From the NCBI RefSeq assembly GCF_013122565.1, contig NZ_CP053258.1: a stretch of DNA of 64,000 nucleotides. One strand, given 5' to 3'. A program made the position numbers and the translations under genes. The first letter of the stretch is position 1. Each line of letters opens with the position of its first letter. Shown here piece after piece: positions 40,450 to 57,500 of this stretch. This DNA comes from Escherichia coli. Lineage in GTDB: Bacteria > Pseudomonadota > Gammaproteobacteria > Enterobacterales > Enterobacteriaceae. A model generated the notes under the pieces. That model did not search any database. It saw only the letters and a program-made list of their open reading frames with translations, and was not told the origin of the DNA.

Positions 40450-42114
40450 TTAAAATGTTTCCCAGTTCTCCTCGCTATCTGCCACGGCCATTTTACGCGG
40501 CGTAGCTGGCGTCACGGTTTTTACTACAGCCGATGTTTCACGCTGCTGTTGCTGCTGTTGCTGAATTCGGAACACTGCCACTGCTTCGGTCAGGCGACTG
40601 GCCTGCTCTTCCAGCGCGGCGGCGGCGGCGGCAGATTCTTCCACCAGCGCGGCGTTCTGTTGAGTTACCCGGTCCATCTCAGCAACCGCTAAGCCAACCT
40701 GATCGATACCACGGCTCTGCTCATCAGAAGCAGAAGCTATTTCGCCCATAATGTCCGTCACGCGGGTCACGGCACTGACAATCTCCGCCATTGTTTCCCC
40801 GGCGCTTTCGACCAGCGTAGAGCCAACATCCACTTTCCCCACCGAGTCTTCAATCAGGCTTTTAATTTCACGAGCCGCCTGGGCGCTGCGCTGGGCCAGA
40901 TTACGCACTTCTCCCGCGACCACCGCAAAACCGCGCCCTTGCTCACCCGCACGCGCAGCCTCAACCGCGGCGTTCAAAGCCAGAATATTGGTCTGGAAGG
41001 CAATGCCGTCAATTACGCTGATAATATCGGCGATTTTCTGCGAACTGGTGGAGATATCGCGCATAGTCTGCACCACGTTATCTACCACTTTGCCGCCGCG
41101 TTGCGCCGTTTCAGAAGCACTTAATGCCAGATGGCTGGCCTGGCGCGCATTCTCGGCGTTCTGTTTCACCGTTGCGGTCAGTTGCTCCATGCTGGCTGCA
41201 GTCTCTTCCAGCGAAGCGGCCTGTTGCTCGGTGCGCGAAGAGAGATCGTTATTGCCGGTAGCGATTTCGCTGGCACCGCTATAGATGGCATTGGCCCCGT
41301 TGCGCACATCACCGACGGTACGCATCAGCTCTCCCTGCATATGGCGCAAACTCTCAGCCAGTTGCCCCATCTCATTAGAGCCATCCACCTCAATCGGTTT
41401 CACCAGATCGCCGCTTGCAATATGACGAATGCTGTCAATCAGGCGATTCATTGGCGCTACCAACGAGGCTTTAATACCGAACCAGACGGCGAAGATGACC
41501 GCCAGTACGGCGATCATCACGCCCACCAGAATCCACATCGCCTGGCTGTAGGAGGCATGGTTATCGCTGACGGCGATATCATAGAGCCGATCGTTTTGCT
41601 CCATGTAAGCCACATACTGCTTCTCGAAACCGTCCTGATATCCCTGGGTCGGCTGATCAAAGAACTCGTTGATTTTGCCTGCACCTAACAGTTGGATCAG
41701 CTCCGCCAGCGCATTGTGATAAATATCGTAATTACGTTTGATCTCTGCCGCTGCGGCGGTGCTCTGACGCGGGTCACGCGGCAACGCTTCGTAATCCGCC
41801 CAGTTTTTTTCCGCCTGTTTCAGCGAAATACTGGCACTCTGCATCAGCTCAGCAACGGTTGAACCGCTACCAATATTGTTCTGATCCATCATGTAGCGGA
41901 TACCCGCGCGGTTGAGGGTGTTACGCGTCTGCAACAACGCGACCCAGCTGCCATTCAGCGTGGATTGCTGCTGGCGAATGGTTTGTAAAACAGTGAAATT
42001 TTCTTTGTCATTCTTTAAGGCATTAAAGAACAGACCGCCTGATGTCAGTTGTAAAAGGCCAAAAACGGCCAAAACCAGCAGTAAGCTGGTCACGATCTTG
42101 ATACGTTTTAACAT
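40450..42114 (-). CDS. tsr: Methyl-accepting chemotaxis protein I (serine chemoreceptor) Tsr, with expanded poly-Gln tract
   Basis: [27 protein letters not shown] and MCP signalling domains; C-terminal NWETF pentapeptide. Confidence 0.95.
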
Positions 42115-42144
42115 GGTTTCTCTTTCCTGTGGACCGATGCAAGA

Positions 42145-42171
42145 TTTTCGGCCTGAAATGAGAAAACTTTA
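42145..42171 (-). promoter_or_regulatory. Sigma28 (FliA)-type promoter for tsr: TAAA-N15-GCCGAAAA
   Basis: Minus-strand TAAA (42171..42168), 15-nt spacer, GCCGAAAA (42152..42145), one mismatch to the GCCGATAA consensus; about 30 bp upstream of the tsr ATG. Confidence 0.55.
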
Positions 42172-42341
42172 TAGGTAGCGACTTGAAACTGGTTAATTTT
42201 ACCTCACTTTTTTAATTTTTGTTCAAAAATACAATAACCACTTATTGATACATTTTCTTTTCTTATTTTTTTCACACGAATTGTATCTATTTTGAACGAA
42301 ATATTTTATAGAGTGTGGAATTTTAAGAAAGGACATCTGAA

Positions 42342-42884
42342 ATGTTAAACCGTGACTTCGATCATCTCTCAACGCTATTACATCTCTTTTTTGAACGTGA
42401 GGATATTTGCCAAAAGCTTAATATTATTGACCAAAACAATATCACCGGTTGGGAAGTGTGGTTCCAGGTAGAGTTTGCTAATATGCTCTGCTCAACAGAC
42501 CATGAATGGTGGCGTGAACAAGCACTTTCCTGTGATATGCGCAAAAAACCTGAGCGCCCGACACTACGCACAGATTTCTTACTACGTAAAAAAGGCTGGG
42601 CACAAGATAGCTATATCGCGCTTGAAATAAAACAAAACAGAGACGCGACCAGTTGTGTTAAAAATATGATCGCAGACTTAGAAAAAAGCGCAAAAATAAA
42701 ACGTTCCGAACTCGATTTACGCAGTTTCTGGACCTTGGGTATCACCCCTATGATAGACAGGGAAAGGCTGGACTCTCTCATCGATTGCTATTTAGATGAG
42801 AAATTTTATCTTACTAAATCTCGTAAAAAACACGTTTTACTTAAAGAAATAAATAACACACCATATTGCTATATTGTTATTTAA
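42342..42884 (+). CDS. Hypothetical 180-aa protein, AT-rich, with PD-(D/E)xK-like motif arrangement
   Basis: SD AAGGA 8 nt upstream of ATG; candidate motifs E (WEVWFQVEF), D (LRTDFLL), ExK (IALEIKQ); low GC versus flanking genes. Confidence 0.5.
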   Translation: MLNRDFDHLSTLLHLFFEREDICQKLNIIDQNNITGWEVWFQVEFANMLCSTDHEWWREQALSCDMRKKPERPTLRTDFLLRKKGWAQDSYIALEIKQNRDATSCVKNMIADLEKSAKIKRSELDLRSFWTLGITPMIDRERLDSLIDCYLDEKFYLTKSRKKHVLLKEINNTPYCYIVI

Positions 42885-42992
42885 TATTTATAGCATGAAT
42901 ATAATTTTTAAATGAGTTACACAACCGAGGGCTAAAAATCGCTTCGGTTGTGATCATCATCACATAAATAACCTTCATAAACCTTGCTCAAA

Positions 42993-43020
42993 ACCGCTCA
43001 ACCGCAAAACTGACCGCTTA
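42993..43020. promoter_or_regulatory. Putative BtsR (YehT) binding site: direct repeat ACCGCTCA-N12-ACCGCTTA upstream of btsT
   Basis: Two copies of ACC(G)CT(C/T)A about 160 bp upstream of the btsT start, matching the recalled LytTR direct-repeat motif. Confidence 0.5.
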
Positions 43021-43176
43021 CGTCCCTAAAATAACCACTCAGTTATTTACCTTACTTTACGCGCGCGTAACTCTGGCAACATCACTGCAGGATAGCGGTC
43101 AATTTACCTCCTCAAACGCAACGCAAACCTAGAACGGCTTCGGCCAACTATTAATCAATACATGCCAGGTTTTACT

Positions 43177-45327
43177 ATGGATACTAAAAAGATATTCAAG
43201 CACATACCCTGGGTGATTCTCGGAATCATCGGTGCATTCTGCCTCGCGGTAGTTGCATTACGTCGGGGGGAGCACGTCAGCGCCCTGTGGATCGTGGTCG
43301 CCTCTGTGTCGGTGTATCTGGTGGCGTATCGCTACTACAGTTTGTACATCGCCCAGAAGGTGATGAAACTCGACCCCACGCGCGCGACGCCTGCGGTTAT
43401 TAACAACGACGGTCTGAACTACGTTCCGACCAACCGTTACGTGTTGTTTGGTCACCACTTCGCCGCTATCGCCGGTGCTGGTCCGCTGGTTGGTCCGGTT
43501 CTCGCCGCGCAGATGGGCTACTTGCCTGGCACGCTGTGGCTGCTGGCGGGGGTAGTGCTGGCCGGTGCGGTACAGGACTTTATGGTGCTGTTTATCTCCT
43601 CTCGCCGTAACGGCGCATCTCTCGGTGAGATGATCAAAGAAGAGATGGGACCAGTACCGGGGACTATCGCGCTGTTTGGCTGTTTCTTAATCATGATCAT
43701 CATCCTCGCCGTCCTGGCGCTGATTGTGGTTAAAGCCCTGGCCGAAAGTCCGTGGGGTGTCTTCACCGTTTGCTCAACCGTACCGATTGCGCTGTTTATG
43801 GGTATCTACATGCGCTTTATCCGTCCGGGGCGTGTGGGTGAAGTCTCTGTCATTGGTATCGTGCTGCTGGTTGCCTCTATCTACTTCGGTGGCGTGATTG
43901 CTCACGATCCGTACTGGGGTCCGGCACTGACCTTTAAAGACACCACCATTACCTTCGCGCTGATTGGCTATGCGTTTGTTTCCGCACTGCTGCCGGTGTG
44001 GCTGATCCTCGCGCCGCGCGACTATCTGGCAACCTTCCTGAAAATCGGCGTTATCGTCGGCCTGGCGCTGGGTATCGTGGTGCTGAACCCGGAACTGAAA
44101 ATGCCTGCGATGACCCAGTACATTGACGGTACTGGCCCGCTGTGGAAAGGCGCTTTGTTCCCGTTCCTGTTCATCACCATCGCCTGTGGTGCGGTATCTG
44201 GCTTCCACGCGCTGATCTCTTCCGGTACAACGCCGAAACTGCTGGCTAACGAAACCGACGCGCGTTTCATTGGCTACGGCGCAATGCTGATGGAGTCCTT
44301 CGTGGCGATTATGGCGCTGGTTGCAGCGTCCATCATCGAACCGGGTCTTTACTTCGCGATGAATACCCCGCCTGCTGGCCTTGGCATCACCATGCCTAAC
44401 CTGCATGAAATGGGTGGCGAGAACGCGCCGATCATCATGGCGCAGCTGAAAGACGTTACCGCACACGCGGCAGCGACCGTCAGCTCCTGGGGCTTCGTGA
44501 TTTCGCCAGAGCAGATCCTGCAAACCGCGAAAGACATTGGTGAGCCTTCTGTCCTGAACCGTGCAGGTGGTGCGCCGACGCTGGCGGTAGGTATCGCTCA
44601 TGTGTTCCACAAAGTGCTGCCGATGGCTGACATGGGCTTCTGGTATCACTTCGGTATTCTGTTCGAAGCCCTGTTCATCCTGACCGCGCTGGATGCGGGT
44701 ACCCGTTCTGGCCGCTTTATGCTGCAAGACCTGCTGGGTAACTTCATCCCGTTCCTGAAAAAAACCGACTCTCTGGTTGCTGGTATCATCGGTACTGCGG
44801 GCTGTGTGGGTCTGTGGGGCTACCTGCTGTATCAGGGCGTGGTCGATCCGCTGGGCGGCGTTAAGAGCCTGTGGCCGCTGTTCGGTATTTCCAACCAGAT
44901 GCTGGCAGCCGTAGCGCTGGTACTGGGCACCGTTGTGCTGATTAAGATGAAGCGCACCCAATACATCTGGGTAACTGTTGTTCCGGCTGTATGGCTGCTT
45001 ATCTGCACCACCTGGGCGCTGGGTCTGAAACTGTTCAGCACCAACCCGCAGATGGAAGGCTTCTTCTACATGGCAAGCCAGTACAAAGAGAAGATTGCTA
45101 ACGGTACTGACCTGACGGCGCAGCAGATTGCCAACATGAACCACATCGTTGTGAATAACTACACCAACGCAGGCCTGAGTATTCTGTTCCTGATTGTGGT
45201 GTACAGCATCATCTTCTACGGTTTCAAAACCTGGCTTGCGGTGCGTAACAGCGACAAACGTACTGACAAAGAAACTCCGTACGTTCCAATCCCGGAAGGC
45301 GGCGTGAAGATCTCTTCGCACCACTAA
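43177..45327 (+). CDS. btsT: Pyruvate/H+ symporter BtsT (YjiY), CstA family, 716 aa
   Basis: MDTKKIFKHIPWVILGIIGAFCLAVV; CstA-family multi-TM; ORF track extends to 43162. Confidence 0.9.
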   Translation: MDTKKIFKHIPWVILGIIGAFCLAVVALRRGEHVSALWIVVASVSVYLVAYRYYSLYIAQKVMKLDPTRATPAVINNDGLNYVPTNRYVLFGHHFAAIAGAGPLVGPVLAAQMGYLPGTLWLLAGVVLAGAVQDFMVLFISSRRNGASLGEMIKEEMGPVPGTIALFGCFLIMIIILAVLALIVVKALAESPWGVFTVCSTVPIALFMGIYMRFIRPGRVGEVSVIGIVLLVASIYFGGVIAHDPYWGPALTFKDTTITFALIGYAFVSALLPVWLILAPRDYLATFLKIGVIVGLALGIVVLNPELKMPAMTQYIDGTGPLWKGALFPFLFITIACGAVSGFHALISSGTTPKLLANETDARFIGYGAMLMESFVAIMALVAASIIEPGLYFAMNTPPAGLGITMPNLHEMGGENAPIIMAQLKDVTAHAAATVSSWGFVISPEQILQTAKDIGEPSVLNRAGGAPTLAVGIAHVFHKVLPMADMGFWYHFGILFEALFILTALDAGTRSGRFMLQDLLGNFIPFLKKTDSLVAGIIGTAGCVGLWGYLLYQGVVDPLGGVKSLWPLFGISNQMLAAVALVLGTVVLIKMKRTQYIWVTVVPAVWLLICTTWALGLKLFSTNPQMEGFFYMASQYKEKIANGTDLTAQQIANMNHIVVNNYTNAGLSILFLIVVYSIIFYGFKTWLAVRNSDKRTDKETPYVPIPEGGVKISSHH

Positions 45328-48089: not shown

Positions 48090-50189
48090 TTAAGCCATCG
48101 CGTTATCCATCTGCTTTTCAAATGCCTGACGAATTAATCCCATCACATAAGGAAGCTCAGAAAGATCGCTGAAACCTACTTCAACATCGCCATTGCCCCA
48201 ACGGCCTATATCTGTGACATCTTTAGCCATACATTTTGGGTCAACCAGTTCATGGAATGGCATATTTAGTGATAAACGTAAGCGACTTTTTTGCGGCACC
48301 ACATCAACAAAATTCGTCTCCGCTTTGAAGGCAACATAGAGCTTCAATATTTCTCGCGTAACCCCAGCGTCCAGCGCCATAACGGCATCAGAAAGGCTGT
48401 CAAAAAGTACGCGGATATGCGTACCTTCTTCAAGTTGCGGGAAATCAGCAAGGATATATCCCGTTCCTCGTTCAATGACGGTGCGATAACGAGCCAACAC
48501 GTCTTCCGAAAGTTTGGGGATCGCCCAGACGTCTATTGCCAGCTCGGCCAGACGTTCCGCTCTCTTTTGTATCGCTGCACGATCCCATATTTCACATTGC
48601 CCTAACCCCGTGTTCAGGCGTAATGGACTTTCCTTAAAGCCACCTTTTATATCTCGCTTCTTCGTAAATGGACGGTCGCTGTAGCTTGAGTTATAGCCAG
48701 TTAACGTTAAATTACCCAACGTATGGAGCCACTTTTTATGGATACGCTTCCATTCCGGGCCAAGGTCATCGCGCCACTTCGCCGATAAATTAGGGTTCTG
48801 CGGCATGATATGTTCAATCGTATAAGTGTCAACATAGACCCGTTCTTTACGACCGTGGTTTTCAAATCTGCGTAGCCAATAGCTGCGATTACGGAAGTTG
48901 TAGAGGTCGCGAGTTTTCAGTTCACGTTGAAATTCATCATCATCCGGGAAACGACGGTAGGAAGGCAGTTCCAGCAAATGCGCCGCAATGCTCTCCAGAT
49001 AACGCTCTTTATCCAGCACTTTGTAAAACGTGGCGAAGGTTTTGGTAAATGAGTTGGTGGGAATGGCACAGACTGCGCGCCGGAAGATATACGACTCAAT
49101 TAAACGCGTGGCACTTAAAAAATCCGCGGCAGAAAGAATTCCCTGTTTATAGTCGTGATAAAGCACCAACAGGAACGGCCATGCAGCATCAACTTTCAGT
49201 TCCCGCAGATCCTGAAACGCCATCTTTAATATTTTGTCTTTTTCGCTATCCAGCGCCATCGCACAAAAATAATCCGCATAGGTACGAATATCCGCAACCA
49301 GCGCCTCCATCCCGCTATCCATCACTCCTGGTTTTCGCGCATAGCGTTTAAAGGCTTCATAGACATCACCAATTCGCGGAATCTCACCTGTTTTTACCGT
49401 CAGGTAATTACGCATAAAACTGTCGAAATAGTCAGTGTATCCCTTCTGACCAAACGCCAGCTCCATGGGCCGCCAGTAATCGTCGTACAGTTGGCTTTGA
49501 TGTTCTGGCTCCAGCCCCATCAAAACATAGTTGCGTACCAGATCCGCCTGACTCAGCGCTTTCCCTGTAGAGTTCATACTTTCGAAGATAAGTTGCGGAT
49601 TATCCTGACCGCGGTTCAAGGCGACATCCACAATCAGCAGTTTTGAAAGGCCCTGACATAACGCGGTGAAATTGCCGTGGAGTTTGCCTATTTGCTCATG
49701 GAAAAACTCAAAATTCTCTTTCACGCGTAGAGAGCAATTTTCTGCCAGCGGTTTTTGCCTAATCAATGCCAGCAGGCTCTCTCTGTCCGTTTGCGTAAGA
49801 AGTAACTTAAAACCACGCTCGCCCGATTCATACGGATTGAGCAGATAATAGTTTCGTAATTTCATGGCGGAGAAACCATCCATCACCTCGTCATCACCAA
49901 GATGTCTGGACAACGCTTCCAGCAATAACATCGCCGTTGTCAGGCGTTGCTGACCGTCAATCACCAGTAAGGGAGAGATCCCCGAAACCTGATATAGGCC
50001 CTGTTCGATATACACCACCGAGCCGATGAAATGCGCCGGGATATCATCACGCTGCCCGGCACGTATTACATCGTCCCAGAGCTGGCGGCACTGTTCCTCT
50101 GACCATGAATAAGTACGCTGATAAATGGGAATAACGAATTGCTGAGAGCGTTTTAGAAAATCGAGTAATCGGGCTTCGGTGGCTTTCAT
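48090..50189 (-). CDS. GmrSD-family Type IV (modification-dependent) restriction endonuclease, DUF262 + DUF1524 with extra C-terminal domain, 699 aa
   Basis: DUF262 motifs IPIYQRTYSW and DGQQRLTT; DUF1524 His-Me motifs EHIMPQ and HTLGNLTLT; SD AGGAG before ATG. Confidence 0.8.
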   Translation of the reverse strand: MKATEARLLDFLKRSQQFVIPIYQRTYSWSEEQCRQLWDDVIRAGQRDDIPAHFIGSVVYIEQGLYQVSGISPLLVIDGQQRLTTAMLLLEALSRHLGDDEVMDGFSAMKLRNYYLLNPYESGERGFKLLLTQTDRESLLALIRQKPLAENCSLRVKENFEFFHEQIGKLHGNFTALCQGLSKLLIVDVALNRGQDNPQLIFESMNSTGKALSQADLVRNYVLMGLEPEHQSQLYDDYWRPMELAFGQKGYTDYFDSFMRNYLTVKTGEIPRIGDVYEAFKRYARKPGVMDSGMEALVADIRTYADYFCAMALDSEKDKILKMAFQDLRELKVDAAWPFLLVLYHDYKQGILSAADFLSATRLIESYIFRRAVCAIPTNSFTKTFATFYKVLDKERYLESIAAHLLELPSYRRFPDDDEFQRELKTRDLYNFRNRSYWLRRFENHGRKERVYVDTYTIEHIMPQNPNLSAKWRDDLGPEWKRIHKKWLHTLGNLTLTGYNSSYSDRPFTKKRDIKGGFKESPLRLNTGLGQCEIWDRAAIQKRAERLAELAIDVWAIPKLSEDVLARYRTVIERGTGYILADFPQLEEGTHIRVLFDSLSDAVMALDAGVTREILKLYVAFKAETNFVDVVPQKSRLRLSLNMPFHELVDPKCMAKDVTDIGRWGNGDVEVGFSDLSELPYVMGLIRQAFEKQMDNAMA

Positions 50190-50473
50190 GAATGACTCCT
50201 GTCAAATTGCACTGGCAAACGGCGTCATTATGCTGCGAATAAAAAATAAAAGTTAGCGTCTTTGTTTCTGCAAAAATACCATTCCAGGATAAATCAAAAT
50301 ATATTAAGAAACACCTCAGAACGCATTCATTAGAACAATTAATACTTCCAACCAATATTTATAACGCATTGAAAATGATCATGTTTTTGATTGTGTTGAC
50401 GATAGTTTGATATAACAAAGCATTCACTTCACATTGAATACCTCCCTCTTTTTCAGGGCAAGGAATGCTTTTT

Positions 50474-52819
50474 ATGACATCAACTAATTTCAGCCAGATT
50501 GCAGCCTTCCTGTGGTCTGTCGCCGACCTGTTACGCGGCGATTTTAAACAATCACAATATGGACGAATTATTCTTCCTTTTACCCTTTTGCGTCGTCTGG
50601 AATGCGTACTCGAAACAACGAAAGACGCGGTCATTGCTGAGGCGCAAAAAGTAAAAGCCATGAAACTGCCGGAGGAAGCCCAGGAGAAAATGATCCTGCG
50701 GGCGACTAATGGCCTGACGTTCTTTAACGCCTCAGCGATGGACCTCAGCAAAATGGGGCAAAATGGCATACAGGACAACCTGGAAAACTACATCCAGTCG
50801 TTCTCTTCGGATGCCCGCGAAATTTTCGAACACTTCAAGTTCAGCGAGTTTGTCGGACAGCTGGCGGATGCGAACTTGCTGTTCAAAGTGGTGCAAATAT
50901 TCGCTAAAGCAGATTTATACCCGGAGCATGTCACCAACCACGATATGGGGCTGGTGTTTGAGGAGCTGATCCGCCGTTTTGCCGAGAGTTCTAACGAAAC
51001 CGCCGGGGAGCACTTTACCCCGCGTGATATCGTCAATCTGACCACCTCGCTGGTGTTTTTCGATGATGATGACGCGCTCAATAAAGACGGCATCATCCGC
51101 ACCATTTACGACCCAACAGCGGGAACCGGCGGCTTTCTCTCCTCCGGCATGGAGTTCGTCCACAAACAAAACCCCAATGCCGTGATGCGCGCGTTTGGTC
51201 AGGAGTTAAACCCGGAATCCTACGCCATCTGTAAAGCCGACATGCTGATTAAGGGCCAGGACGTCAGCCTTATCAAACTCGGCAACACCCTGTCCAACGA
51301 TCAGCTCCCCGCAGAAAAATTCGATTACATGCTTTCTAATCCACCTTTCGGCGTGGACTGGAAAAAGATAGAAACCGACATCAACAACGAGCACAAACTC
51401 AAAGGTGCCGATGGTCGCTTTGGCCCCGGCCTGCCCCGCGTCTCTGACGGTTCGTTGCTGTTTCTGCTGCACCTGATCAGCAAAATGCGCGATGCCAAAA
51501 GCGGTGGCGGGCGGATCGGCATCATTCTTAATGGTTCGCCGTTATTCACCGGCGGTGCAGGAAGCGGTGAAAGCGAGATCCGCCGCTACATTCTGGAAGC
51601 GGATTTGCTGGAAGGCATTATCGCCCTGCCCACCGACATGTTTTACAACACCGGTATCGCTACCTATGTTTGGGTGCTGTCCAACAAAAAAGCGCCAGAA
51701 CGCAAAGGTAAAGTCCAGCTTATCGACGCCAGCAACCTGTGCGGCAAAATGCGTAAGTCGCTGGGATCAAAACGTAATATTCTCGGGGAGGAGGATATTG
51801 GTTTAATCACCCGCACGTTTGGCGATTTCGAACCCGTTGCCACCACCACGCTCGCGGCGTTAGGCCTGGAGAAAGCACCTGAACAAAAATCCAGCCGGGG
51901 ACGCCAGCCGACCACAACCAAAGCTGAGGCGGCAAAAACCTTTGCCAGCAAAGTCTTTTACAGCACCGAATTTGGCTATCGACGCATCACCGTTGAGCGC
52001 CCGTTGCGCCTGTCGTCTCAGATCACCGATGACGCTATTGCCACATTGCGCTTTGCGCCGAAGCCGTTTAACGCGCCGATGGCACAACTGTATGACGCCT
52101 TTGCTTTCCAGTGGCAGGACGGTAATTACGGCGACTTAACAGCGGTAGAAAGTGAAGCACGCGCCATTCTTAAAGCCGATTTTAGCGAGCTGAAAGAGAA
52201 GCAAATTAAAGATCTGCTCGACAGCAAATTATGGCTGGCCCAGCGCGGGTTAATGGAAAAAGCGCGGCGTATACAGGCGGCGATGGGGATGCTGGCGGGT
52301 GGCAAAGAGACCGTTAGCAATGACTTTAATCAGTTCCAGTTGACGCTGAAAGAGGCGTTCAAAACCGCAGGCGTGAAGCTGGATGCGAAAGAGAACAAGC
52401 AGTTTATCGATGCTATCACCCGCAAAAACCCGGACGCCGAGCCGGTAGTCAGCAAGGTACTGAAAGAAGCGGCACAACCGCTGTATGGCGCGTTTGAGTA
52501 CCACGGAAAGGTTGTGGAGTTTGAGCCGGATGGCGACCTGCGCGATAACGTGAATGTGCCGCTGAACCCGACGGTATCTACCAGCGAGTTGATCGAGGGT
52601 TACTTCAAAGCGGAAGTATTGCCGCACGTCGCGGATGCGTGGATTAACGCCGATAAGCGCGATGCGAAAGATGGGGATATCGGGATTGTGGGGTATGAAA
52701 TTCCGTTTAACCGCCATTTTTATGTTTATCAGCCGCCGAGGCCGCTGGAGGAGATTGATGCGGATCTGGATGCGGTAAGCGCTGAGATTATGAAACTGTT
52801 GCAGGAGGTACATTCCTGA
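50474..52819 (+). CDS. hsdM: Type I restriction-modification N6-adenine DNA methyltransferase subunit HsdM (long form, about 780 aa)
   Basis: AdoMet motif [11 protein letters not shown] and catalytic NPPFG; stop overlaps hsdS start; ORF track extends to 50465. Confidence 0.9.
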
Positions 52820-54240
52820 TGGCAGGGTTAAATAAATATCAGGCGTATCCGGAGTATAGGGATTCTGGGGTGGAGTGGTTGGGGGAGATACCCTCACACT
52901 GGAGCGTTAGCAAGCCCCGTTATATGTTTAATTTCGGCAAAGGGCTTACAATTACCAAAGAGAATCTCCAGGACGACGGGATACCTTGCATTAACTACGG
53001 TGAAATCCATTCAAAATATGGTTTTGAAGTATCCCCCAAAATTCACCCATTGAAATGCGTTGATGAGAAGTATATAAAAGATAATTCAGGCTCATTACTT
53101 TTAAAAGGAGACATTATTTTTGCAGACACATCTGAAGATATTGATGGTTCCGGTAATTTCTCACAACTAATCAGCGATAATATTTCATTCGCTGGTTATC
53201 ATACAATTATTGCCAAACCACTTAATAGAAGAAATTGGCGATTTTATGCTTATCTTCTTGATTGCAAAGAGTTGCGAACCCAAGTTAGACATGCAGTTAA
53301 GGGAGTAAAGGTATTTAGCATTACACAAGCTATTTTACGCGGCCTTTCTATTTGGCTCCCTACGGATGATGAACAGAGTAAAATAGCTGATTTCCTCGAC
53401 CACGAAACTGTAAAAATCGACAACCTAATCAAGAAACAACAACAACTCATTGAACTACTGAAAGAAAAACGTCAGGCAGTGATTAGCCATGCGGTGACCA
53501 AAGGGCTAAATCCTGATGTGCCGATGAAAGATTCTGGGGTTGCGTGGTTGGGGAAAATACCAAAACATTGGGAAATGAGTAAACTACGCTACATGTTTCG
53601 CTTCGGAAAAGGTCTAACAATTACAAAAGAACATCTGCACGATGAGGGGGTTCCATGTGTTAACTATGGCGAAATACATTCTAAATTTGGTTTCGAAATC
53701 GACCCTCAAATTCACAAATTAAAATGTGTTGATGAATCGTACATTCTAAATAACCCCGACTCATTGATCTATAAAGGAGATATTATATTTGCAGATACAT
53801 CTGAAGACATTGACGGCGCTGGTAATTTTACACAATTGATTAGCGATAACCAAATATTTGCCGGTTATCACACTATTATATTACGCCCTCTTAATAGAGA
53901 GTCCTTAAGGTTTTATGCATATATATTTGATAGCAAAGCACTACGGGCACAAATTAGTAATGCAGTGAAAGGCGTGAAAGTATTTAGTATTACTCAAGCC
54001 ATTCTTCGAAGTACATCGATATGGTTTCCACCATTATCAGAACGAGAACGTATTGTTGCATTTCTCGATAACCAAACAATAAAAATCGATACCCTAATTG
54101 AGAAACAACTCCACCAAATAGCTCTCCTAAAAGAACGCCGCACCGCCCTTATCTCCGCTGCCGTCACCGGAAAAATCGACCTACGCAACTGGACCGCCCC
54201 CATCCCCGAAGCGGAAACACCCACGGAGGCCAGCGCATGA
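52819..54240 (+). CDS. hsdS: Type I R-M specificity subunit HsdS with two near-identical target-recognition halves
   Basis: Two tandem TRD-plus-conserved-helix units (KPRYMFNFGKGLTITKENL... and KLRYMFRFGKGLTITKEHL...); ATGA overlap with hsdR. Confidence 0.9.
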   Translation: MAGLNKYQAYPEYRDSGVEWLGEIPSHWSVSKPRYMFNFGKGLTITKENLQDDGIPCINYGEIHSKYGFEVSPKIHPLKCVDEKYIKDNSGSLLLKGDIIFADTSEDIDGSGNFSQLISDNISFAGYHTIIAKPLNRRNWRFYAYLLDCKELRTQVRHAVKGVKVFSITQAILRGLSIWLPTDDEQSKIADFLDHETVKIDNLIKKQQQLIELLKEKRQAVISHAVTKGLNPDVPMKDSGVAWLGKIPKHWEMSKLRYMFRFGKGLTITKEHLHDEGVPCVNYGEIHSKFGFEIDPQIHKLKCVDESYILNNPDSLIYKGDIIFADTSEDIDGAGNFTQLISDNQIFAGYHTIILRPLNRESLRFYAYIFDSKALRAQISNAVKGVKVFSITQAILRSTSIWFPPLSERERIVAFLDNQTIKIDTLIEKQLHQIALLKERRTALISAAVTGKIDLRNWTAPIPEAETPTEASA

Positions 54241-57200
54241 ACCACGACATTACAAAAGAGGTTAACCTGCAAAACGACATTATCGCGCAGATGGTGGAAA
54301 AAGGCTGGATTGTCGGCAAAGGTGACGGCTACGACCGGGAACGTGCGCTATACGCACAAGACACCTTAAACTTCGTAAAAACCACCCAACCGCAGGAGTG
54401 GGAGAAATTCGCACGCGTTTATCCCAACGACACCGAGCGCCATTTCCTCGACGCGCTGGTCGCGCAGCTTAAAAAAGCCGACAGCAACGCCACTGATATT
54501 CAGTCGCGCACCTGGGGTACGCTCGGCGTACTTCGCCACGGCCTGAAAATTCGCAATGCCCGTTTTTCGCTGTGCCAGTTTAAACCGGAACATAATCTCA
54601 ACCCGGAAACGCTGGCGCGCTATCAGCAGAATATCTGCCGTATTGTGCCGGAACTGGTCTACAGCCCGTATGCCTCAAATAGCGTCTTTGCAGAAACGGG
54701 CGTGAAAGCCAAAAAATGGCGTATCGATCTGGTGCTGTTTATCAACGGCCTGCCGGTTGCCACGCTGGAGCTAAAATCCGAATTTAAACAGGCGGTGCAG
54801 AACGCCATTGCCCAGTACAAAAAGACCCGCCTGCCGAAAGATCCCGCGACCAATAAACCTGAACCGCTGCTGACCTTTAAGCGCGGCGCGCTGGTACATT
54901 TTGCCGTCAGCCAGTATGACGTCTTTATGACCACCAAACTCGCCGGTGACAGCACCTTCTTCCTGCCGTTTAACAAAGGCACCAAAGACGGCGGCGCAGG
55001 CAACGAGATCCCCGAAGATACTCGCCGCTACGCCACAGATTATCTGTGGAATGAAGTGCTGCTGCCGGACAACTTATTAAAAATCCTCGCCAGTTTTGTC
55101 CATTTGCAGATTGAAGAAAAAGAGGACTGGAACGGGCTGAAAGCGAAGAAAGAGAGCCTGATTTTCCCGCGCTATCACCAGTGGGATGTGGTCAATAAAC
55201 TGCTGGAGGCCGCGACGATTGAAGGCACCGGCCACAAATACCTGATTCAGCACAGCGCCGGTTCCGGTAAATCGAACTCCATTGCCTGGACCGCCCACCA
55301 GCTTTCTCGTCTATACGACGTTAACGGGGAAAAACTGTTCCACTCCGTTATCGTGGTGACGGACCGTACGGTGCTGGACGACCAGCTTCAGGACACCATC
55401 TGGCAGTTCGAACATGCCGACGGCGTGGTCGGGCGCATCAATAACAGAGAGGGCGACGGCTCCAAATCGGAAAAGCTCGCCAGCGCGCTGGAAAACTCGC
55501 AGCCGATAATCATCGTCACCATCCAGACATTCCCGTTCGTACTGAAAGCTATCGAAAACAGCATCAGCCTGAAGCAGCGTAAATATGCGGTGATTGCCGA
55601 CGAAGCGCACTCATCGCAGAGCGGTTCCACCGCCCGTCAGCTTAAAGAAGTGCTGATGAGCGAAGAGATGGATGATGACGTGGTGCTGTCGTCAGAAGAT
55701 ATTCTGGATGCGACCATTGCCGCCCGGAAAGGCAGCAGTAACCTGAACTACTACGCCTTTACCGCCACGCCAAAATCCAAAACCCTGGAACTCTTTGGTC
55801 GCTGTCCGCGTCCCGATGAACCGGCCTCAAAAACCAATAAACCTGAGGCCTTCCACGTCTACTCCATGCGCCAGGCAATCGAAGAAGGCTTTATCCTCGA
55901 CGTGCTGAAAAACTACACCAACTACAAAGTGGCGTATCAGTTGCTGCAAAAGCTGGAAGATGAAAACCGCGAAGTCGATAGCAAACGGGCGAAGGTAAAA
56001 CTCAATCAGTGGGTGACGCTGCACGACCACAATATCTCGCAGAAGGTGAAGGTGATTGTGGAGCACTTCCGCAAACATGTGATGCATCTGCTTGGCGGCC
56101 AGGCTAAAGCGATGGTGGTCACCAGTTCACGCAAAGCCGCCGTGCGCTACAAGCTGGCGTTTGATAAATACATTAGCGAGAACAATTACCAGAAAATCAG
56201 CGCGATGGTGGCGTTTTCCGGGGAAGTTGAATTCCGGGAAGGCGACCATAACAGCCTGGCATTGTTAAACCAGAAATTTACTGAAATAAACATGAACCCC
56301 GGCCTGAAAGGGCGGGATATGCGCAAAGCCTTCGACAGCGATGATTATCAGGTCATGCTGGTTGCCAATAAATTCCAGACCGGTTTTGACCAGCCGAAGC
56401 TGTGCGCGATGTACGTGGATAAACCCCTCGGTGGCGTCGAGTGCGTGCAGACACTCTCCCGCCTGAACCGCACCTATCCGGGCAAAGCGGAATCAGGCAC
56501 TTTTGTCCTCGATTTTTATAACGATCCAGACGAGATCCTCGGCGCATTCCAGCCCTATTTCCAGACGGCGGAACTGACCGATGTCAGCGATCCGCAGCAG
56601 GTGTTCGATCTGTTTGAAAAACTGCGCGCCACGCAGATTTTCCAGTGGCATGAAGTCGAGCAGTTCTGCGAGGCATACTTCATCAAAAATAAATCGAATG
56701 CGGCGATCAGTAATATCTGCAAACCGGCGGTCGAACGCTGGAAAAAGCGTTATCTGATGGCGATAGACGCCTATTTGACCGCCAAAGAGATGTTCGAGCG
56801 CACCAAAAAAACGGGCGATACAGTATTAATCACCAATGCGGAAAACAGCTTTAAAGCCTGTAAGCAGGAGAAAGATCGTCTGGAGATTTTCAAGAAAGAT
56901 CTCGGCAGCTTTGTTCGTTTTTATGAATTTATGTCGCAGATCGTTGAATACGATGACAAGGATCTGGAAAAGCTAAGCCTGTTTGCTCGTCATCTGCGTC
57001 CGCTGCTGCATGAGCAACGTCTGGAAGAGGATGAAATTGATCTCAGTAATGTGGAGATGAGTCACTATCGTTTATCGAAAATCCATGAGCAAGATTTACG
57101 CTTACAGGAAGAAACGCCTGACTATACGCTGGATGCAAGTAATAATATTGGTACGGCAAAAGCGAAAGATAAAAAAGAGGAGTTTTTATCGCAGGTGCTT

Positions 57201-57500
57201 TCTCGGATGAATGAATTATTCATTAGCGACCATTTGACCGACAAAGATATGATCAGCAATGCTTTTGCGGTGTATAACAAAATAACTGAAAATGAAAATG
57301 TTATGACACAAATTAAAAACAATCCCCCAGAACAAGCGATTCTTGGTGATTTCCTCCAGGCAGTTGATAATGCTGTAATGGACAGTAATGACGCTCGGCA
57401 AGAATTTATGTTGCAATATTTATCCGATCCAGCTCGGGCAAAGGGCTTTGCTTATCTGATGTTTGATATGCTAACGGGGAAAATTGCTTTACCAACATAA
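54237..57500 (+). CDS. hsdR: Type I R-M restriction subunit HsdR (helicase/endonuclease), 1087 aa
   Basis: N-terminal PD-(D/E)xK (IDLVLF...LELK), helicase motif I QHSAGSGKS, motif II IADEAHSS. Confidence 0.9.
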   Translation: MNHDITKEVNLQNDIIAQMVEKGWIVGKGDGYDRERALYAQDTLNFVKTTQPQEWEKFARVYPNDTERHFLDALVAQLKKADSNATDIQSRTWGTLGVLRHGLKIRNARFSLCQFKPEHNLNPETLARYQQNICRIVPELVYSPYASNSVFAETGVKAKKWRIDLVLFINGLPVATLELKSEFKQAVQNAIAQYKKTRLPKDPATNKPEPLLTFKRGALVHFAVSQYDVFMTTKLAGDSTFFLPFNKGTKDGGAGNEIPEDTRRYATDYLWNEVLLPDNLLKILASFVHLQIEEKEDWNGLKAKKESLIFPRYHQWDVVNKLLEAATIEGTGHKYLIQHSAGSGKSNSIAWTAHQLSRLYDVNGEKLFHSVIVVTDRTVLDDQLQDTIWQFEHADGVVGRINNREGDGSKSEKLASALENSQPIIIVTIQTFPFVLKAIENSISLKQRKYAVIADEAHSSQSGSTARQLKEVLMSEEMDDDVVLSSEDILDATIAARKGSSNLNYYAFTATPKSKTLELFGRCPRPDEPASKTNKPEAFHVYSMRQAIEEGFILDVLKNYTNYKVAYQLLQKLEDENREVDSKRAKVKLNQWVTLHDHNISQKVKVIVEHFRKHVMHLLGGQAKAMVVTSSRKAAVRYKLAFDKYISENNYQKISAMVAFSGEVEFREGDHNSLALLNQKFTEINMNPGLKGRDMRKAFDSDDYQVMLVANKFQTGFDQPKLCAMYVDKPLGGVECVQTLSRLNRTYPGKAESGTFVLDFYNDPDEILGAFQPYFQTAELTDVSDPQQVFDLFEKLRATQIFQWHEVEQFCEAYFIKNKSNAAISNICKPAVERWKKRYLMAIDAYLTAKEMFERTKKTGDTVLITNAENSFKACKQEKDRLEIFKKDLGSFVRFYEFMSQIVEYDDKDLEKLSLFARHLRPLLHEQRLEEDEIDLSNVEMSHYRLSKIHEQDLRLQEETPDYTLDASNNIGTAKAKDKKEEFLSQVLSRMNELFISDHLTDKDMISNAFAVYNKITENENVMTQIKNNPPEQAILGDFLQAVDNAVMDSNDARQEFMLQYLSDPARAKGFAYLMFDMLTGKIALPT

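Follow-up and report, generated by a model that had tools for sequence, protein, structure and literature searches.

A genetically solitary gene for a predicted PD-(D/E)xK nuclease, under strong purifying selection at a three-state tsr-btsT locus of Escherichia coli

Within a 64,000-nucleotide stretch of the Escherichia coli contig NZ_CP053258.1 (hereafter the window), the interval between tsr and btsT holds an open reading frame (ORF) of 180 codons that strain K-12 lacks. Here we report that this ORF is almost certainly a real protein-coding gene under selection, and that its product is very probably a catalytically competent phosphodiesterase of the PD-(D/E)xK superfamily. The overall reading that we favor, stopping somewhat short of calling it probable, is that of a functional monocistronic accessory gene whose small single-domain PD-(D/E)xK enzyme serves as a solitary endonuclease in genome conflict. 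What is new is the assignment of fold and active site, the definition of the family, and the recognition of strong constraint together with a probably old residence at a site that exists in three states. The gene is present in essentially the whole O157:H7 lineage and has been called 'hypothetical' since the first annotation of that genome, and a partnerless nuclease of restriction-enzyme fold under strong purifying selection poses the question of how the host chromosome is avoided.

The ORF lies between tsr (40450..42114, minus strand) and btsT (plus strand, RefSeq start at 43177), and the features that immediately define it are as follows.

42342..42884, plus strand: coding sequence with ATG start, for a 180-amino-acid stand-alone protein of predicted PD-(D/E)xK nuclease fold (RefSeq WP_000934391.1)
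42329-42333, plus strand: Shine-Dalgarno (SD) sequence AAGGA, 8 nt 5' of the ATG, as read from the sequence
42173..42341, plus strand: AT-rich upstream non-coding stretch (approximately 28-30% GC), confined to the ORF-bearing allele

The GC content of the ORF is 38.5%, compared with 54% for tsr and 56% for btsT. A preliminary description of this DNA had noted the ORF, the SD sequence with its 8-nt spacing, the AT-richness, and a hairpin beyond the stop codon, all of which are present; its further suggestion of an overlooked gene does not stand, as the existence of the gene was already known and RefSeq annotates its product as a hypothetical protein. The only upstream element that can be aligned across genera is a GAAGGA/GAAGGAC-like SD sequence, and the stretch 42173..42341 has no conservation between genera. 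Any promoter belonging to the ORF itself should lie within that stretch, where no consensus sigma-70 promoter was found upstream of the ORF on the plus strand.

Full-length homologs of 180 amino acids, at 38-99% identity, were found in Escherichia, Citrobacter, Enterobacter, Serratia, and Pseudomonas in a search of 5.8 billion proteins, and when 1.84 billion cluster representatives (clustered at 50% identity) were searched exhaustively with a profile, 322 clusters were recovered at E<=1e-3, nearly all consisting of single-domain proteins of 175-195 amino acids. Mostly gammaproteobacterial, the family comprises 39 close cluster representatives besides these approximately 322 distant ones. The reading frame is kept from Escherichia to Pseudomonas, Vibrio, Acinetobacter, and the Campylobacterota, with a start codon and N-terminus that are alignable across genera, and between genera the proportion of nonsynonymous differences (pN) is 0.10-0.18 where the synonymous proportion (pS) is saturated at 0.72-0.97. 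Inside E. coli, the window and strain 18KM2445 carry alleles of the ORF that differ at 55 of 543 nucleotides and 6 of 180 amino acids, corresponding to a synonymous divergence (dS) of 0.68, a nonsynonymous divergence (dN) of 0.019, and a dN/dS ratio of 0.028. For the same two strains dS is 0.061 in tsr and 0.028 in btsT, which places the ORF at 11-24 times the dS of its flanks, and the 227 bp upstream of the ORF are 72% identical. Because the dS of the ORF lies so far above that of tsr and btsT, the ORF and these 227 bp represent an old, strongly constrained allele pair inside recently shared flanks.

That the ORF is a chance frame in AT-rich regulatory DNA and not a gene, a view in keeping with our having found neither expression evidence nor a consensus promoter, is effectively refuted, the homologs alone sufficing: the preliminary description had named an unconserved frame and the lack of a predicted fold as marks of such an ORF, and we found instead a 180-amino-acid frame conserved across bacterial classes from Escherichia to the Campylobacterota, the low dN/dS given above, a confident fold with invariant catalytic residues, and a probability of about 5e-6 per start, by our own calculation, for an open frame of 180 codons at 38.5% GC.

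An AlphaFold2 model based on 18 homologs, with a predicted local distance difference test (pLDDT) score of 88.2 and a predicted template modeling (pTM) score of 0.85, contains two N-terminal helices, a helix at residues 38-50, strands at 54-64, 74-83, and 91-98, a helix at 102-116, and a strand at 126-136. Its core is confidently predicted to have the alpha-beta-beta-beta-alpha-beta order that is canonical for PD-(D/E)xK enzymes, and the superfamily signature is found in place, with a glutamate on the first core helix, an aspartate on the second core strand, and (D/E)xK on the third core strand. The candidate catalytic residues are E38 and E44 on helix 38-50, D78 on strand 74-83, and E95-x-K97 on strand 91-98. 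Across an alignment of 83 members with 23-46% identity to the query, E44 is present in all 83, E38 and D78 each in 82, E95 in 81 (the remaining two having aspartate), and K97 in 81, and 80 of the 83 possess the complete set of five. D112 and K115 on helix 102-116, along with G133, are invariant or nearly so, and C105, M109, E59, and R127 are also conserved. The preliminary description had read a candidate PD-(D/E)xK arrangement from the motifs WEVWFQVEF, LRTDFLL, and IALEIKQ; the motifs are present, the residues that it singled out are near-invariant in the 83 homologs, and structure prediction and fold search bear the arrangement out. The fold and active site, as modeled, are well supported, and it is the biological role that we infer.

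These proteins form a compact and uncurated family of about 320 clusters that belongs to a known superfamily and is lacking from Pfam, NCBIfam, PADLOC, and PHROGs. NCBIfam gives no match for the protein, the best PHROGs match is not significant (E 0.21), PDB sequences return chance transthyretin matches alone (E about 1), and no PDB entry is matched by the family profile. Neither Shedu nor any other PADLOC family is matched, and BFVD structures reveal generic superfamily similarity only. A match to the PADLOC profile 'oMTase' (orphan methyltransferase), with E 9e-4 for the E. coli protein and 9e-5 for that of Citrobacter, was followed up with 10 family members and PADLOC-DB v2, and was rejected as homology of the family as a whole, being absent in 8 of 8 distant members.

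The ORF is found in 362 of 5,426 complete E. coli genomes (6.7%), mostly those of O157:H7, and its absence from K-12 agrees with the preliminary description, which had proposed that it is strain-specific. E. coli copies are always single, chromosomal, and full length, with 355 of them at least 99% identical, and a divergent second E. coli allele occupies the same tsr-btsT site. E. marmotae and E. ruysiae have variants that are 93-94% identical, and with these included Escherichia holds three allelic lineages. The tsr-ORF-btsT arrangement is also present in Citrobacter (80% amino acid identity), Enterobacter, and Phytobacter.

The gene is genetically solitary. We surveyed its context at 51 reference-genome loci from the Enterobacterales, Vibrionaceae, Pseudomonas, Halomonadaceae, Acinetobacter, Pasteurellaceae, Neisseria, other Betaproteobacteria, and Campylobacterota, and found it to be monocistronic, with median intergenic gaps of approximately 140 bp on both sides and neighbors in arbitrary orientation. 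Clustering of the neighbors at the 51 loci disclosed no recurrent family beyond genus-level synteny; no methyltransferase occurs among the 30 nearest neighbors, and no linked methyltransferase, antitoxin, transposase, or cyclic-nucleotide synthase is conserved. DNA similarity between contexts extends from the SD sequence to the stop codon and no further; even the genera that share the tsr-btsT site have unrelated flanking DNA. The GC content of the gene is lower than that of its flanks at 41 of 45 loci, by a mean of 8 points, and the copy is truncated or decayed at about 8 of the 51. Across the family, neither a LexA box nor an enriched upstream k-mer was found, the shared tsr promoter excepted.

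The nearest neighbors are mostly core or metabolic genes, including acnD, gnd, ispD, queG, rtcB, and genes for citramalate synthase, fuculokinase, and transporters. In five Acinetobacter genomes (L052, L056, and L058-L060) the gene follows acnD (2-methylisocitrate dehydratase) on the same strand after 50-140 bp, and in L052 it is itself followed by a gene whose product weakly matches AbiJ-like (HEPN) proteins; the placement after acnD is a second case of a genus-level fixed position beside a core gene. A minority of contexts contain a strong SIR2 defense protein, a retron-type reverse transcriptase, an AbiJ-like protein (a weak match), or an IS630 transposase. A Serratia copy sits in an island with an integrase and a type I restriction-modification (R-M) system, and on a metagenomic contig a copy lies beside AbiEi/WYL genes. 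Copies in Xenorhabdus adjoin a LexA/UmuD-like gene, and one further lineage (L013) has the gene between dinI and bssS, with umuDC and a gene for an SRAP-domain protein within 4 kb. The E. coli copy itself lies 3.5 kb from yjiA, which anchors the immigration control region (PMC12707154). The features that accompany the gene in the last two settings are listed here.

L013 6643-6718, minus strand: tRNA-Thr(TGT), 100 bp downstream of the nuclease gene
Window 48090-50189, minus strand: DUF262/GmrSD-like type IV enzyme of 699 amino acids (PADLOC Orf5/HEC-06/mREase_IV), downstream of yjiA
Window 50465-57500, plus strand: type I R-M system with a methyltransferase of 784, a specificity protein of 473, and a restriction protein of 1087 amino acids

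A role in defense or conflict is proposed because the accessory distribution of the gene is patchy, AT-rich, and prone to decay, some of its contexts are defense islands, and the E. coli copy is close to the immigration control region; we rank it first among the possible roles, and do so tentatively. Judging by the fold and by which residues are conserved, one or two Mg2+ ions would be coordinated by E44 (perhaps together with E38), D78, and E95, and K97 would position and activate the attacking water as a helper of the general base. The bond hydrolyzed would be a phosphodiester bond of nucleic acid, most probably DNA, with a conserved basic hairpin (R82-K83-K84) and R127 perhaps contacting the backbone. 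The protein would act without a genetically linked methyltransferase, antitoxin, transposase, or signaling partner. It would act against foreign or abnormal DNA and spare the host chromosome, in the manner of type IV and other self-restrained restriction factors. Doubtful, in our view, is the proposal that the whole family constitutes a single-gene immunity or genome-conflict nuclease, which in 180 amino acids would tell self from foreign without a methyltransferase, a reader domain, or a signaling partner, for example by way of DNA structure, modification, or a replication intermediate. Its retention beside the enterobacterial immigration control region, at one fixed chromosomal position, would then be of very long standing. 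Were the protein to prove a defense factor, the known systems would gain a minimal one of a single gene, and the variable defense neighborhood around that region would be extended.

Several observations weigh against a conflict role. A dN/dS of 0.03 is below that of typical arms-race genes, and the single domain of 180 amino acids includes no recognizable modification-reader or specificity domain, which leaves avoidance of self DNA with no explanation. No tblastn match was obtained in 50,697 phage records or in 72,556 plasmid records, only about 3 of 30 immediate neighbors are defense-related (the rest being mostly core or metabolic), and no match to a PADLOC defense-protein profile is reproducible across the family. 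With no consensus sigma-70 promoter upstream, the ORF may go unexpressed in laboratory culture. Neither the protein accession nor the likely O157 locus tags were found in any main text, and the supplements of O157 transcriptome and ribosome-profiling papers have no entry for them, a weak negative given that the EDL933 locus tag is uncertain; in literature and supplements we found no biochemical, genetic, or expression evidence for any family member.

Of the other functions that could be served by such an enzyme, that of a structure-specific or repair/recombination nuclease, comparable to Holliday-junction resolvases, Vsr, or MutH and performing a dispensable accessory function on host DNA, fares best, and we regard it as unlikely. 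It would account for the very strong purifying selection (dN/dS 0.028), for the stable single chromosomal copy between core genes in many genera, and for the lack of phage and plasmid copies; it would need no methyltransferase, and it is in line with the position between dinI and umuDC-region genes in one lineage and beside a LexA/UmuD-like gene in Xenorhabdus. A repair function is harder to reconcile with a gene that is patchy (6.7% of E. coli), is truncated in some copies from other genera, has a GC content consistently under that of its host, and has no LexA box or common upstream regulatory motif. Should it nevertheless be correct, the protein would be a new accessory enzyme of DNA metabolism in a major pathogen.

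We consider it improbable that the protein is an orphan type II restriction endonuclease whose methyltransferase is unlinked, supplied by the host, or lost, the enzyme in this last case being attenuated. The small type IIP enzymes of the BamHI/BglII/BstYI/OkrAI group and R.SwaI share 7-11% identity with it, with no sequence-level match, and in contrast to them it has no adjacent methyltransferase at any of the 51 loci, its neighbors in E. coli being tsr and btsT. The linked methyltransferase on which a type II R-M assignment would depend is missing. No methyltransferase is a conserved neighbor, none of the 8 distant members has the 'orphan MTase' match, and the hosts differ widely in their methylomes; moreover, an unprotected sequence-specific enzyme would kill its host, and a decaying remnant would not give a dN/dS of 0.03.

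A selfish, homing-type free-standing endonuclease gene, which would cleave the unoccupied allele of its own site and then be copied there during repair, is similarly improbable. It would explain how a lone nuclease gene came to fill the same intergenic tsr-btsT site in four genera, and a partnerless gene that is intergenic between core genes and AT-rich relative to every host has the expected appearance; the ORF and its upstream region are also far more diverged than the flanks in E. coli, as expected of an independently moving cassette. A homing gene, however, moves together with flanking homology into a conserved target, whereas conservation here runs from SD sequence to stop codon in diverse contexts. 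There is no common homing target, because the DNA surrounding the insertion varies from genus to genus, and the insertion contexts are many and unrelated. E. coli has essentially one lineage with an identical single copy, and there are no phage or plasmid copies, terminal repeats, or duplications.

No better a prospect is a toxin-like or RNA-targeting nuclease whose restraint would come from an unlinked factor, H-NS silencing, or a small antitoxin or RNA not yet recognized. Silencing would be compatible with the AT-rich upstream region and its want of a consensus promoter. A conserved adjacent antitoxin, as expected of a toxin-antitoxin pair, is not found, however: no neighboring ORF of at least 70 amino acids is conserved, those of fewer than 70 being judged only indirectly, and the flanks are unconserved between genera at the DNA level, making a conserved small antitoxin gene or RNA unlikely. 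Rfam has no match in the interval at E<=1.

If we return to the favored reading of a solitary conflict endonuclease, among the known systems that come closest are the Mrr-like type IV enzymes, which are likewise stand-alone PD-(D/E)xK proteins, independent of a methyltransferase and encoded in the accessory genome in or near defense islands. A solitary, patchy accessory gene with no methyltransferase is what would be expected of a type IV enzyme, and that is what we observe. Mrr-type enzymes, however, have a separate N-terminal domain for recognition of DNA or its modification, whereas the protein described here is a single domain of 180 amino acids, and it matches neither Mrr_cat (PADLOC and Pfam) nor mREase_IV nor any NCBIfam profile. 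NucC, an effector activated by cyclic oligonucleotides in cyclic-oligonucleotide-based anti-phage signaling systems (CBASS) and in type III systems of clustered regularly interspaced short palindromic repeats (CRISPR), is found beside a CD-NTase or a CRISPR locus and has a pocket that binds cyclic triadenylate (cA3); no such neighbors occur at the loci of this family, and PADLOC gives no NucC match.

The N-terminal domain of TnsA (PF08722, from Tn7-like elements) has the same catalytic fold and is the only Pfam family with any signal, and automatic annotation in UniProt names some family members after TnsA. The match is below threshold, with an independent E value of 0.11 for the E. coli protein and 5e-3 for the best member; 4 of 83 members reach E<=0.1, and none of the 83 matches TnsA_N or any other Pfam family at E<=0.001. 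Unlike TnsA, the protein has no TnsA C-terminal domain and no tnsB, tnsC, or tnsD neighbors, and the E. coli segment has no terminal repeats. With the profile threshold unreached and transposon genes absent, membership in TnsA_N was rejected. The nuclease domains of the Wolbachia cytoplasmic incompatibility factors CinB and CidB share 8-9% identity with the protein; they are unrelated to it in context and biology, being parts of multidomain, eukaryote-targeting effectors of 660-730 amino acids that are paired with CinA or CidA.

The locus is a clean three-state polymorphism of E. coli, its breakpoints coinciding with the functional promoters of the flanking genes. K-12 has 91 bp of unrelated filler where the window has a nuclease-bearing segment of approximately 776 bp (42173..42948), and BL21 carries the hpa (4-hydroxyphenylacetate) operon at this place. 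A remnant of the ORF in the K-12 filler was considered and rejected, as local alignment of the 91 bp with the 776-bp segment scores 22, compared with 21 +/- 2.4 for shuffles. A rough estimate, based on 30 rows taken at even intervals through the ranked hits, is that about half of E. coli are K-12-like, about 40% have the btsT-proximal piece only (hpa-type or other), and about 7% have the ORF. In all three states btsT keeps its CRP palindrome and its BtsR site.

Window 42115-43176: tsr-btsT interval with the 776-bp nuclease segment
K-12 locus (L002) 3001-3377: the same interval with the 91-bp filler
BL21 locus (L003) 2917-3308: the same interval, BL21 type
42145..42172, minus strand: left boundary, FliA (sigma-28)-type tsr promoter TAAAGTTT-N11-GCCGAAAA, with -35 at 42171-42164 and -10 at 42152-42145
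42949..43046, plus strand: right boundary, btsT control region, where K-12 and BL21 homology resumes
42949-42964: CRP-type palindrome TGTGATCATCATCACA, retained, at which K-12 homology resumes
42993-43000 and 43013-43020: BtsR/YehT repeats ACCGCTCA and ACCGCTTA

We take the tsr promoter to be of the sigma-28 type by the established consensus. Homology with K-12 stops 1 nt upstream of its -35 element, and the variable segment is exactly what separates the control regions of the two neighbors. Because the breakpoints fall at the tsr -35 element and the btsT CRP palindrome, the boundaries of the segment appear to be set by selection on the promoters of the neighbors and not by the ends of a mobile element. 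A mobile element was itself considered and rejected, as no terminal inverted or direct repeats or target duplications are found at the boundaries and the flanks share no DNA between contexts. The preliminary description had noted an apparent BtsR direct repeat for btsT downstream of the ORF, and the K-12 fragment that served in experiments as the binding site for YehT/BtsR (PMC4847170) is indeed kept at 42989-43046 of the window with one substitution; yjiY has been placed under cyclic AMP/CRP control (PMC5431176).

It had also suggested that the ORF may be a strain-specific, horizontally acquired insertion. The strain-specific part of that suggestion holds; a recent insertion is less well borne out, the same site being filled in other genera and no element ends being present. 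Given that Citrobacter, Enterobacter, Phytobacter, and the divergent E. coli allele all occupy this site, an old resident of the tsr-btsT interval that has been lost from most E. coli probably fits the data at least as well as a recent insertion, and the excess dS of the ORF makes it likely that alleles have been exchanged by recombination through the conserved flanks.

The btsT leader of BL21 contains an extra insertion of approximately 125 bp (including GTGAATCCCCGGGAGCTTACAACAGTAAGTGACAGGGGTGAACG) at about 3190-3310 of L003, just upstream of the btsT start, which is absent in K-12 and in the window and presumably resembles the enterobacterial repetitive intergenic consensus/intergenic repeat unit (ERIC/IRU) element.

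Beyond the stop codon, both E. coli alleles and the copies in Citrobacter, Enterobacter, and Serratia have strong hairpins that are in corresponding positions but unrelated in sequence, and no hairpin among them has a clear U-tract.

Window ~42920-42952, plus strand: hairpin with an 11-bp stem and no U-tract, approximately 36 nt past the stop codon
L015 ~4579-4611: post-stop hairpin
L004 ~6579-6614: post-stop hairpin
L008 ~6577-6603: post-stop hairpin
L007 ~6574-6600: post-stop hairpin

The hairpin in the window has z = -4.2 to -4.5 relative to shuffles, and its 3' arm abuts the btsT CRP palindrome. It is probably a terminator or insulator, and may shield the downstream promoter.

Three minor observations concern the neighboring coding sequences. 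The divergent tsr (42103-42114) and ORF (42342-42353) open with near-identical runs of 12 nt, ATGTTAAAACGT and ATGTTAAACCGT (encoding MLKR and MLNR), which form a 12-nt inverted repeat spanning the tsr-ORF intergenic region, probably by coincidence. Tsr has 554 amino acids in the window and 551 in K-12, a length difference of 9 nt whose likely place is a run of eight glutamines near the C-terminus. Finally, the longest ORF for btsT starts from an ATG at 43162 (MPGFTMDTKK…), and the RefSeq start lies 15 nt downstream at 43177 (MDTKK…).

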